Virus record (IMG/VR): IMGVR_UViG_3300026118_000019
Coordinates: 4,261 to 68,260 of that record
DNA from: a virus
Reading direction: 5' to 3' (one strand)
Length of the DNA stretch: 64,000 bases
Shown: positions 29,746 through 31,153 of the stretch, piece after piece
Layout: the number at the start of each line of letters is the position of its first letter
Numbering within the stretch: position 1 is the stretch's first letter
The notes under the pieces: generated by a model
What the model saw: the letters and a program-made list of their open reading frames with translations, nothing else
Database searches by the model: none
What the model was told of the DNA's origin: nothing
Made by a program: the position numbers and the translations under genes

Positions 29746-31153
29746 GAGGCAGCACCTGGCCGAATGGGACGCCCTGGTCGACCGACTCTTTGCACTCGAT
29801 AGAGAATACCCATACCTCGGCCAAATGATTGACGCCGACGCCGAGACGGGCGACGAAGAGCGTGAGTTATACGAGGGACAACCACGGGAGGATGATGGGC
29901 GCTTCGGCACCGGGAAAGAATCACCGGAACCTACGGGCCATGCCAGCGAATTTGCCGGGCTGCTGAAATCCATCAGCAAGCCAGACGCAGGGTTTACCTA
30001 TCATGCGGTGAGTCACCGCCAGCCGAAGACGGGCTATGCGCTGTCGATTTACAAGAGCCGTGAACAGCTCCACACGGCCAAGTCGATCACTCCAGCGGAC
30101 CTGGCCCGCTACGTGCGTAAGAACAGCGACCTGTTGGCGAAGGGGGATCACTACCTCGGGGCCTGGCACAATCCGAAAGATGATAAAGTCTATTTGGACG
30201 TCTCGCGGGTGGTGCGCACCGCGCAGGAGGCTGAACGCCTCGGGCGCGACCATAACCAAGAAGCCTACTTCGACCTGCACCGTGGGAAGTCCGTAGAAAT
30301 TTCGAAGCGCAAGCATTCAGACTATGGCCACCAAACCTCGCCTGTATCTCACCGGCCCAGCGGAGGGCAAACCGACGTTGGAGGATATCCTGGCGCTCTT
30401 CCGCAAACTGTCCGGTCGGGAGCCGACGCCGGAGGAAATCGACGCAGCGAAGGCCGAGCTGGAGAAGTAAGCCTCGGCGACTGGGACGAAAGTCTCCACC
30501 CGCGCGAAGACGACGGCAAATTCACCACGGCTGCTGGCGGTGGTGCCCCCACCGCCGAGCCCCCACCGAAACCTGCGCCCAGCAAGTCCGACGGCACCGA
30601 CTCCCGGAAGGCCCCCACAGAGAGTGGCGCGTCCGACGATGGTCGTGGCACCCAGACTTACGAGTCTCGCCTACACGACGCCGAGCAGTCCATTCGATTC
30701 GAGCCCATGGAGCATGCCGTCGTCCTGAAAGCCGACGGGACCAAAGTCGCCACGCTCACCAACAATGCCAGGGACTACGTCATCCTGGATAAAGACGAAC
30801 AGGGGAACACGGTCGACCTGGCCAATGCGGTGCTCACACATAATCACCCAGCAGGGTATGGGTTGAGTGTCGACGACGGCATCACAGCGGCCACGCGGAA
30901 CCTCGCCGAAATGCGCGCGGTGACCAAAGCCCACGGCACCTTCAGTATCAAACGGCAGGGTGCAACCTGGCCGGAGGATTTCAAAACACGGTTGGAAGTC
31001 GCTGACATTCAACAGCGCGCGGAGTTTACCGACGAAATTCTCAAAGGCACCATCTCGGTCAAAGACGCCAATGACCGCCACCATGACGAAGTCTACAAGA
31101 AGGTAGCCAAGCCTGGGGACGTGATTTACACCCACACACCAAACACACCATGA
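29735..31153 (+). CDS. Two-domain protein: SAM-lyase-like(?) domain + JAB/MPN-like domain
   Basis: YLGAWH...VYLDVS...A..LG...Q.AYFDL; EHAVV...THNHP...LS.DD; each preceded by the repeat. Confidence 0.65.
   Translation: MPSKRQHLAEWDALVDRLFALDREYPYLGQMIDADAETGDEERELYEGQPREDDGRFGTGKESPEPTGHASEFAGLLKSISKPDAGFTYHAVSHRQPKTGYALSIYKSREQLHTAKSITPADLARYVRKNSDLLAKGDHYLGAWHNPKDDKVYLDVSRVVRTAQEAERLGRDHNQEAYFDLHRGKSVEISKRKHSDYGHQTSPVSHRPSGGQTDVGGYPGALPQTVRSGADAGGNRRSEGRAGEVSLGDWDESLHPREDDGKFTTAAGGGAPTAEPPPKPAPSKSDGTDSRKAPTESGASDDGRGTQTYESRLHDAEQSIRFEPMEHAVVLKADGTKVATLTNNARDYVILDKDEQGNTVDLANAVLTHNHPAGYGLSVDDGITAATRNLAEMRAVTKAHGTFSIKRQGATWPEDFKTRLEVADIQQRAEFTDEILKGTISVKDANDRHHDEVYKKVAKPGDVIYTHTPNTP
30324..30470 (+). 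CDS. Overprinted 48-aa helical ORF in alternative frame
   Basis: MATKPRLYLTGPAEGKPTLEDILALFRKLSGREPTPEEIDAAKAELEK; stop 2 nt before the repeat at 30473; no clear RBS. Confidence 0.55.
   Translation: MATKPRLYLTGPAEGKPTLEDILALFRKLSGREPTPEEIDAAKAELEK

Follow-up and report, generated by a model that had tools for sequence, protein, structure and literature searches.

A conserved small gene embedded in the +1 frame between two modules of a phage head-cargo polyprotein encodes a predicted partner of the upstream module

Spanin genes Rz and Rz1 of phages occur in embedded, overlapped and separated arrangements, and the survey that describes them reports no spanin family in which the embedded architecture is mixed with the others (Kongari 2018, PMC6139136). 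MuF polymorphic toxins are accompanied by a small downstream immunity ORF (Jamet 2017, PMC5576092), and polyvalent proteins have been described in phages and conjugative elements (Iyer 2017, PMC5512222). Overprinting in viruses has also been treated (Pavesi 2021, PMC8227390; Sabath 2012, PMC3494269): both frames are used, the older being more constrained and the younger prone to disorder. The gene described here is wholly contained, in the +1 frame, in a longer phage gene, as Rz1-like genes are, and lies in a portal and MuF context like that of the MuF toxins.

The gene was found in a 64,000-nt stretch of viral DNA, called the window below (Table 1). The host ORF encodes, in this order, a leader, a degenerate tag, module 1, a spacer, the tag LGDWDESLHPREDDGKF and module 2. 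Its ATG, for which a GTG at 29726 is an alternative, overlaps the stop codon of a giant portal-MuF gene, and its own stop overlaps the next ATG (ATGA). The 1986-aa protein encoded just upstream matches Portal_Mu (2.7e-52), Phage_Mu_F (5.2e-10) and Pyr_redox_2, a pyridine-nucleotide oxidoreductase family (2.6e-32); a protein matching Mu-like_Pro (2.7e-23) is encoded downstream. Multi-domain arrays in a head-morphogenesis context, tied to portal and MuF, are what characterizes cargo proteins of the type of Iyer 2017, and as in those proteins the domains are unrelated, effector-like and presumably packaged and injected. Phmmer retrieved 2633 relatives of the host ORF protein; searches of Pfam and PHROGs assigned no family to it, and as a lone query the 472-aa protein retrieved no viral locus. 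Module 2 has homologues among the phmmer relatives (e.g. P0040 and P0065). No start codon of its own lies near the tag, so that module 2 can be produced only by host-frame reading through the small gene.

Table 1 Features of the host ORF and of the small gene embedded in it (positions in the window).
Feature	Position	Strand	Description
Host ORF	29735..31153	+	472 aa from ATG; two-module head-cargo polyprotein
Module 1 ('YLDVS' domain)	29948..30307	+	about aa 72-191; profile match 8e-58
TAG in +1 frame	30294..30296	+	9 codons upstream of the small-gene ATG; closes the +1 frame there
Host-frame spacer	30323..30469	+	aa 197-245, YGHQTSPVSHRPSGG...GRAGEV; off-frame reading of the small gene
Embedded small gene	30324..30470	+	48 aa and TAA (30468-30470); +1 frame of the host ORF
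Tag LGDWDESLHPREDDGKF	30473..30523	+	heads module 2, host frame; 2 nt past the small-gene stop
Module 2	30524..31150	+	host frame; nothing significant in Pfam or PHROGs

Module 1 is predicted to be a compact alpha/beta domain (AF2 pLDDT >90 across aa 80-190) and is also found within internal virion proteins of cyanophages Syn5 and S-CBP42. It gave nothing significant in Pfam or PHROGs. Fold searches returned nothing convincing (Foldseek best E 0.44; VIA best Z 5.0, with an rmsd of 2.6 over 48 residues), and its Atlas neighbours are viral clusters without names. No toxin fold or family was recognisable in any of these five resources. The label 'SAM-lyase-like', attached to module 1 earlier, was not adopted, as matches to SAM lyases are too weak: phage SAM lyase 6znb ranked fourth in Foldseek (E 0.49, TM about 0.2) and SAM lyase 6zm9 ranked 31st in VIA (Z 3.3, rmsd 3.7 over 70 residues).

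The ATG of the small ORF lies 16 nt past the last position matched by the module 1 profile (13 relatives show gaps of 7-54 nt), and its stop lies 2 nt ahead of the Leu codon that opens the tag. The first-pass annotation of this DNA had described a 48-aa ORF filling the stretch between the first domain and the next tag, and its start, stop and peptide proved to be exactly as given there; its remarks on GC-rich third positions, two helices, a host frame that reads as off-frame filler and the lack of a clear Shine-Dalgarno (SD) sequence are likewise borne out by the data below. The GC fractions of codon positions 1/2/3 are 0.67/0.46/0.79 in the +1 frame, 0.65/0.42/0.69 in module 1 and 0.79/0.68/0.47 in the host frame across the small ORF. 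The +1 profile thus resembles that of genuine genes in the window, a coding signature that the host frame lacks. In a codon model trained on 17 long ORFs within the window, the log-likelihood was +21.6 for the +1 frame versus -9.5 for the host frame. A difference this large occurs in only 0.28% of 20,634 off-frame 48-codon windows, and the coding score of the small ORF lies in the top 0.12% of such windows. A scan of 18 long ORFs revealed a comparable frame switch at only two other places.

Three runs that are not flagged as a possible source yield contigs over 30294-30444, 30306-30456 and 30411-30900 that show neither differences nor gaps. An assembly or sequencing indel as the origin of the frame switch is excluded by these gap-free independent contigs and by the recurrence of the arrangement in other assemblies. 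The contigs confirm both frame junctions, and comparison with the relatives described below shows 30324-30470 to be a genuine conserved gene.

The small protein is predicted to consist of an N-terminal strand followed by a helix-loop-helix, with AF2 helices at residues 19-30 and 36-47 (mean pLDDT 70.3). The family consensus is M..KPxLxLxG....PTLDDLxALxRxLTGREPTPEEIExA. Pfam and PHROGs gave nothing significant, and the best VIA match has Z 3.5 (rmsd 5.5 over 46 residues), a value that carries no information for a helix-loop-helix. A likeness to SAP/HeH or Rho_N motifs was considered and dropped, no supporting evidence having been found.

Relatives of the small protein emerged only through profile and alignment steps. 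The 48-mer alone had no match in a word-indexed protein search at near and longer lengths, in tblastn against 50,697 phage records with E up to 10, or in a pattern scan of viral contigs, and it occurs as a single copy in its own genome. Tblastn against 18 related viral loci, a comparison proposed with the first description, found a homologue right after module 1 in 10 of them (37-60% identity). A profile search extended the small family to 76 protein clusters of 26-107 aa. Once duplicate loci (L004, L020-L029, L035 and others) had been collapsed by identical small peptide, there were 15 distinct loci with a homologue immediately behind module 1, and in addition one convergent locus (L030).

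These loci differ in how the two genes are arranged. Eleven distinct loci, the window included, hold the embedded form, every one in the +1 frame; their small proteins are 42-60% identical to that of the window, and in 8 of the 11 a tag of some type starts at most 5 codons from the small stop. In one locus (L058) the genes overlap, and in two they are separate (L009, joined by ATGA, and L011, with GGAGG). In addition, 8 of 137 representative relatives carry the small domain as an in-frame fusion at the C-terminus of module 1, and in P0050 module 1, the small domain and the tag all follow in one frame. No small ORF was found beside the module 1 relatives of L012-L019, Syn5 gp45 and Gordonia phage Fryberger gp75, which argues that the small protein is not indispensable to the module 1 fold. 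Conversely, 24 of the 39 assessable small ORFs had no module 1 within at least 400 nt of upstream DNA, and the small domain also occurs in tandem arrays and, in L055, fused to a TY-Chap3 domain. The family is thus not exclusive to module 1 and may have a more general role. Neighbours of stand-alone small ORFs include HDAC, metallophosphoesterase, 3-keto-disaccharide hydrolase, PEP-CTERM, integrase and TY-Chap3, with no common theme.

Conservation was compared between the frames. Pairwise identity averages 0.47 for the small frame, 0.27 for the host frame and 0.54 for module 1, and the small frame is the more identical of the two overlapping frames in 44 of 45 pairs. The 23 nucleotide differences of the close pair L003/L005 are synonymous in the small frame in 16 cases and in the host frame in 4. 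The per-frame comparison that had been suggested at the outset thus shows purifying selection acting on the small frame and not on the host frame.

The spacer that the host frame encodes over the same nucleotides is predicted to be disordered (AF2 pLDDT 50-57, no secondary structure). Across the small gene the host frame is free of stops in 11 of 12 loci versus 0.9 expected from synonymous resampling, in which the probability of an open frame was 0.009-0.21 per locus (tail 1.2e-13, for loci that share ancestry and are not fully independent). The remaining off-frame stays open in 2 of the 12. This and the other 12-locus comparisons omit L043, whose module 1 is partial, and the convergent L030. 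Low identity together with stop avoidance indicates that in the spacer the small gene is read out of frame, with stops kept away for the sake of the next module. Sequence comparison shows the host frame over the small gene to be devoid of conserved protein information; it is maintained without stops, which lets ribosomes that start at 29735 continue into the tag and module 2. A profile of such off-frame spacers matches directly after module 1 in 32 of the 137 representatives, assigned as embedded-like from protein sequence only, and a reversed control gave 0.

These results bear on the reading that the small ORF is a relic or a chance +1 ORF, no longer expressed in this virus. Off-frame ORFs are common at 61% GC, the copy in the window has no SD-like motif, and no RNA run was listed that contains the stretch. 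Against this, the arrangement recurs in distinct loci whose small proteins have diverged as far as given above, the coding score is extreme among off-frame windows, and a relic would have decayed, whereas the small frame is under purifying selection. Recurrence, stop avoidance, identity and synonymous differences largely refute this reading, which we regard as very improbable.

Relatives carry start signals before the small gene. Its ATG is kept in all 12 embedded or overlapped loci, and an SD-like motif precedes it in 8 of the 12, where the background is 0.131 (p 2.6e-5); 5 of the 12 have a motif of at least 5 nt (background 0.027). No SD-like motif precedes the ATG in the window; four of the 12 loci lack one as well, and so do all 7 ATG/GTG gene starts of the window that were checked. 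The same data weigh on a programmed +1 frameshift near 30300-30324, which would produce a module 1-small protein fusion ending at the TAA at 30470, with unshifted ribosomes yielding the two-module polyprotein and the ATG being incidental. The constant +1 relation of all 11 embedded loci would fit such a mechanism, and the in-frame fused relatives show that module 1 and the small protein can exist as one covalent chain. We nevertheless find it improbable. Met stands at the corresponding position in only 3 of the 8 in-frame fusions, as opposed to all of the embedded and overlapped loci, and SD-like motifs are enriched before the ATG. A stop in the +1 frame lies 3-11 codons upstream of the ATG in the window, L002, L005, L007 and L008, which leaves almost no room for a shift site. 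The 11 junctions, inspected by eye, share no slippery heptamer or in-frame-stop motif, and L009 and L011 carry the small protein as a plainly separate gene.

In order to examine the products together, the small protein was co-folded with module 1 using ESMFold2, as had also been proposed in the first-pass annotation. The ipSAE, a model confidence and not a measurement, was 0.86 (0.86, 0.89 and 0.80 in the three runs), versus 0.00 for the best of three controls. Of 80 solved complexes 58 pass the mark used, as do 2 of 110 mismatched pairs; these counts apply only roughly here, since the co-fold was run with alignments of our own. The runs share at least 94% of contacts, with a partner pLDDT of at least 86. 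Residues 7-9 of the small protein, in its N-terminal strand, are predicted to extend the edge strand 140-144 of module 1, and its two helices to pack against module 1 helix 119-128. Among the conserved motifs of module 1, those at 85-93, 140-148 and 157 fall within the predicted interface. By manual count the interface holds 9 of the 20 invariant module 1 residues, compared with about 46 of 129 residues overall, which is no clear enrichment. The small protein is thus a predicted partner that docks on module 1.

A docking partner of this kind could be a cognate immunity protein or inhibitor, as the first-pass annotation had suggested: module 1 would be a toxic effector kept in check by the 48-residue protein inside the producing cell, and packaging and ejection of the tagged polyprotein would leave this inhibitor behind. 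The co-fold, an interface that takes in conserved motifs and the absence of a packaging tag from the small protein all agree with this, though the co-fold bears on binding and not on inhibition. However, in the in-frame fusions the small domain lies upstream of the next tag, so that the effector would be permanently capped. The searches above recovered no toxin fold or family for module 1, and its invariant residues are not clearly concentrated in the interface. The fusions, including that to TY-Chap3, the tandem arrays and the many small ORFs without module 1 are unlike the behaviour of a dedicated immunity protein. What stands of the earlier claim is a gene retained inside a fused polyprotein and encoding a predicted partner; its designation as immunity or inhibitor does not stand in that form, and we consider dedicated immunity unlikely, though not far-fetched.

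The reading that we favour, and hold to be probably correct, is that 30324-30470 is a dual-coding stretch in which the small gene specifies a detachable C-terminal cap subdomain of module 1. Ribosomes starting at the ATG at 29735 would make module 1, the disordered spacer, the tag and module 2, and an internal start at the ATG at 30324 would yield the free small protein. The cap may be supplied in cis as a fusion, or by a separate downstream gene, an overlapping gene or an embedded +1 gene. It would either stabilise module 1 or hold back its activity up to the unfolding and ejection of the cargo. Having no tag of its own, the cap could reach the capsid only as a passenger of module 1.

The embedded form can most plausibly be traced to a one-frame module 1-small-tag arrangement like that of P0050, or else to separate genes, with subsequent changes of frame at both flanks of the small domain. 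Such changes may be tolerated because the cap would still assemble in trans and the spacer must only stay open. A history with a single indel, in which the small ORF served module 2 as an N-terminal leader and module 1 ended at a stop of its own, was rejected, since the downstream frame that module 1 would then have occupied stays open to about 30790. The architectures were also mapped on a FastTree tree of the 120-aa module 1 domain (149 rows), with no label given to 50 representatives whose sequence stops at most 25 aa past module 1. Embedded versus other known forms required 15 changes (minimum 24 and mean 29.9 in 200 shuffles), and embedded, in-frame and separate forms required 7 (minimum 7, mean 9.6 in shuffles). 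The tree is too weak to tell how many times the architecture changed.

The pair is a new variation on embedded phage gene pairs such as Rz/Rz1. With these it shares a small gene nested in a shifted frame of a longer one, purifying selection on the inner frame, an outer frame that is kept open, partner products (here predicted) and an overprinted part of the longer protein that is less constrained. The proteins, however, are unrelated, the role here would be in head cargo and not in lysis, and the overprinted stretch is a polyprotein spacer that seems constrained chiefly to lack stops. In addition there is a fourth form, the in-frame fusion, and one homologous family holds all four, unlike the spanin families of that survey. 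With the MuF polymorphic toxins of Jamet 2017 the locus shares variable C-terminal or cargo modules and a short ORF without known domains after a module. It differs in that the small ORF lies inside a continuing frame and not beyond the gene end, module 1 is not a known toxin, and the small domain can be fused to module 1 and is found elsewhere. As for the polyvalent proteins, a gene embedded in a spacer is not part of the main-text description in Iyer 2017, where 'linker', 'frameshift' and 'overlapping' occur 0 times. In viral overprinting the novel frame usually makes a new protein, whereas here the small gene is the older frame and the younger one seemingly only a stop-free bridge between modules.

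Gene callers miss the small gene: the 48-mer of the window is absent from a collection of 5.8 billion proteins in which the 472-aa host protein is present. The 'linker' rich in R, G, S and P in 32 of the 137 representatives, as judged from their proteins, would be the footprint of an unannotated gene. A locus in which one frame is selected for its protein and the other seemingly mainly for the absence of stops may be useful for methods that detect overlapping genes. A widespread domain that is also present in cyanophage internal virion proteins is now tied to a specific, predicted small partner, which offers an entry to the function of injected cargo. As one homologous pair exists in four gene forms, the evolutionary route to embedded genes becomes directly comparable within a family, a comparison beyond the reach of the spanin survey (Kongari 2018, PMC6139136).

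A further reading, which we put forward as doubtful, extends the cap to the biology of the injected proteins. Spacers between modules would be shadows of genes, so that those of polyvalent proteins need not be designed linkers, and about a quarter of the family would be concerned. A cap that is non-covalent and untagged would be lost on unfolding and ejection of the polyprotein; in the producing cell and the virion factory the effector would carry its cap, and in the next host it would be bare. If this is true, the phage has a safety catch that is hard-wired by reading frame instead of by a separate immunity locus, and the fused, separated, overlapped and embedded relatives would form a natural series for the evolution of such a switch.

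The region around the host ORF, in a virus record of 68,260 bases, is a Mu-like head module. A short tag, e.g. DWDExLHPRDDxGKF, stands at the head of each cargo module, and the cargo genes are coupled through overlapping stop and start codons (ATGA). The first-pass annotation described a hidden ORF of 48 codons on the linker that follows module 1 (its 'YLDVS' domain), with GC-rich third positions, over a host frame that reads like off-frame filler; coordinates, frame and length were as it had given them. The small ORF starts 16 nt past the module 1 profile match and its stop codon lies, again as annotated, 2 nt before the first codon of the next tag.

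Features of the head-module region and forms of the small gene at loci with module 1 upstream (L-numbers denote related viral, metagenome or MAG loci)
Feature	Position	Strand	Description
1986-aa protein	23785-29745		Portal_Mu, Phage_Mu_F and pyridine-nucleotide oxidoreductase domain
Cargo genes	starts 29735, 31150, 32829		tightly coupled, after the 1986-aa protein
Host ORF	29735-31153		472 aa; leader and degenerate tag, module 1, spacer, tag LGDWDESLHPREDDGKF, module 2
Module 1	about aa 72-191 of host ORF
Host-frame spacer	between module 1 and tag LGDWDESLHPREDDGKF		49 residues, R/G/S/P-rich
Small ORF	ATG 30324, TAA 30468-30470	+	48 codons, +1 frame of host ORF
Module 2	after tag LGDWDESLHPREDDGKF in host ORF
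Mu-like_Pro gene	34039-34851		after the cargo genes
Embedded form			11 distinct loci: window, L002, L003, L005, L006, L007, L008, L010, L031, L044, L056/L047
Overlapped form			1 locus: L058, host-frame stop 13 nt before small stop
Separated form			2 loci: L009 with ATGA overlap; L011 with GGAGG and 27-nt gap

GC at the three codon positions is 0.67/0.46/0.79 in the +1 frame, which is the pattern of the real genes in the window, while the host frame differs (0.79/0.68/0.47). With 17 long ORFs as its training set, a codon model scored +21.6 in the +1 frame and -9.5 in the host frame, a difference reached in only 0.28% of 20,634 off-frame windows. The small ORF is more than chance. Besides it, a scan of 18 long ORFs found such frame switches only at 15713-16073 and 8043-8064. 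The first is a strong +2 signal inside the stop-to-stop ORF 15713-17662 (92 windows, best +24.3 vs -29.6), which probably reflects misplaced ORF borders or a second gene across the ORF start; the other is a weak +1 signal inside ORF 7959-8921 (8 windows). Assembly error as the cause of the frame switch was ruled out by contigs of three runs, those not flagged as a possible source of the record, which cover both frame junctions with 0 differences and 0 gaps. Several metagenome runs from rhizosphere and soil, dated 2017 to 2025, have contigs that contain window positions 29900-30900, with no RNA run among them.

Searches with the 48-mer as sole query found no relatives among proteins, phage records or viral contigs. 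The host protein had 2633 phmmer relatives, several with similar 'filler' after module 1, a first hint from sequence that something else keeps the filler conserved. An alignment of module 1 (A1) was used to retrieve 18 viral loci, and tblastn placed homologues of the 48-mer directly after module 1, where the annotation would have them, in ten (37-60% identity). The other eight (L012-L019), in which module 1 is more divergent, gave no tblastn match. A profile of ten small ORFs (A2) matched 76 protein clusters of 26-107 aa, all 'hypothetical' and none with a Pfam family, as well as 34 metagenome and 4 MAG loci. The MAG matches include Planctomycetota (Anatilimnocola, Pirellulales), Reyranella and Thiocapsa.

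The alternative frame is the conserved one, as expected of the gene that had been annotated: averaged over pairs, identity reaches 0.47 for the small frame, 0.27 for the host-frame spacer and 0.54 for module 1, and of 45 pairs 44 show higher identity in the small frame than in the host frame. L003 and L005, a close pair, differ at 23 nucleotides; 16 of these differences are synonymous when read in the small frame, and 4 when read in the host frame. Synonymous codons of each small ORF were also resampled with the codon usage of its locus, which left the host frame open with a probability of 0.009-0.21 per locus. In fact 11 of the 12 loci have an open host frame, where 0.9 would be expected (Poisson-binomial tail 1.2e-13, an optimistic value because the loci are related, although synonymous sites are saturated at ~50% protein identity); only two of the 12 are open in the remaining off-frame. 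Judged from these comparisons, selection acts on the protein in the small frame and on openness in the host frame.

Module 1 lies directly upstream of 15 of the 44 distinct small ORFs; 24 have no module 1 in at least 400 nt of upstream DNA, and the upstream DNA of five is too short to judge. In L030 the small gene (408-620, +) and a module 1 gene (about 672-1019, -) lie tail to tail, a neighbourhood that on this arrangement is kept in another orientation. Where module 1 is upstream, the small gene is embedded, overlapped, separated or fused in frame. All 11 embedded ORFs are in the +1 frame, start with ATG and leave the host frame open across them; in eight a tag starts at most 5 codons from the small stop, and the tag type varies (LHPRD-GKF, GGPGSGNFGHxGRPG, KYSPxQxRD-GRW). 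Among 137 representatives with module 1 (out of the 150 best protein representatives), eight carry the small domain in frame after it, as in the phmmer relative P0050 (module 1, small domain and tag in one frame). In 32 of the 137, a profile made from off-frame spacers has a match right behind module 1 (reversed-sequence control 0), so that the embedded form is, on a count from protein sequences, common in the module 1 family.

The small family also occurs as tandem paralogues with overlapping stop and start codons (three at L059:1283-1928, two at L053:549-1117), with no module 1 near either array, and as the N-terminus of a 245-aa protein (L055:535-1272) whose C-terminal part matches the TY-Chap3 peptide-binding chaperone family (PF22552, 1.1e-14). 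At L014:2794-3585 and L018:2794-3708, both without a small ORF, the next gene, which overlaps the module 1 stop, starts with MAKPHLALVDPNDEGAIDSFLEAL..; this resembles the small protein's strand and first helix, serving as an in-frame leader, and the resemblance is not significant by profile or tblastn (E 44). The host ORF leader (window 29735-29830, MPSKRQHLAEWDALVDRLFALDREYPYL...) is matched in the phmmer relative P0002 by an in-frame stretch (..RKDIETWDRLVDELFALDAAHPWL..) directly after its TrxB-like domain. The 'leader' thus looks like part of the oxidoreductase module ahead of it, and gene and module borders are decoupled here too.

In the window sequence module 2 lacks a separate start codon near the tag, so it can be made only by translation of the host frame across the small gene. 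For the small protein, all 12 embedded or overlapped loci retain the ATG, and of the 8 in-frame fusions only 3 have Met at the equivalent place. Eight of the 12 loci have an SD-like motif 3-13 nt upstream of this ATG (background 0.131, p 2.6e-5), and five of the 12 have one of at least 5 nt (background 0.027). The window copy has none, as the annotation had cautioned, nor was one found 3-13 nt upstream of seven other window starts (17666, 23785, 29735, 31150, 32829, 33767, 42693; ATG/GTG), so the virus may not depend on them. The main alternative to an internal start, in which ribosomes shift by +1 out of module 1 and into the small frame, has a low probability: in five loci a stop closes the +1 frame 3-11 codons ahead of the ATG, and inspection of the junctions found no common shift motif.

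The small protein alone was predicted to have a disordered N-terminus and the two helices already annotated (pLDDT 70.3); no structure was predicted for the host-frame spacer (AF2, pLDDT 50-57). Co-folding with module 1 (aa 68-196), with alignments for both chains, scored 0.86 (runs 0.86/0.89/0.80) against 0.00 for the best of three controls. Of 80 solved complexes 58 reach the co-fold mark, as do 2 of 110 mismatched pairs; these counts apply only roughly here, since the present co-fold used alignments of our own. At least 94% of contacts are common to the runs, with a partner pLDDT of at least 86; in the predicted complex, small-protein residues 7-9 pair with strand 140-144 of module 1 and the two helices lie against its helix 119-128. 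As a prediction, the model lends support to binding of the small protein to module 1, as the annotation had supposed. Module 1 has no assignable family or fold in Pfam, PHROGs and fold searches; cyanophages Syn5 and S-CBP42 also carry it within their internal virion proteins, and Gordonia phages have it as a free gene; no small ORF is present at the two loci inspected (Syn5 gp45, Gordonia Fryberger gp75).

The annotation had proposed a cognate immunity or partner gene retained inside the polyprotein. This is supported in part: the retained partner gene is real, and its role as an inhibitor is putative. An inhibitory cap shed on ejection is an attractive minority reading. We prefer to see the small protein as a putative detachable cap subdomain of module 1 rather than an immunity protein, since in some relatives it is joined covalently to module 1, ahead of the next tag, and since its family also occurs elsewhere, as in the tandem arrays and the TY-Chap3 fusion.

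By context, the closest parallel is the small ORF that follows MuF toxin genes (PMC5576092). Linkers, overlaps and frameshifts are absent, by term search, from the main text of the polyvalent-protein description (PMC5512222), and no report of an embedded gene in a cargo-module spacer was found among the titles and abstract openings listed, which is not proof of absence in print. In gene architecture the nearest analogue is the spanin pair Rz/Rz1, with embedded (182), overlapped (228) and separated (118) forms among 528 systems, and the survey of these systems found no family mixing embedded with other forms (PMC6139136). Unlike those spanin families, the present family mixes them and adds in-frame fusion. 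The small and host ORFs are an embedded phage gene pair, unusual in that the outer frame seems to serve, where the two overlap, only as a stop-free bridge.
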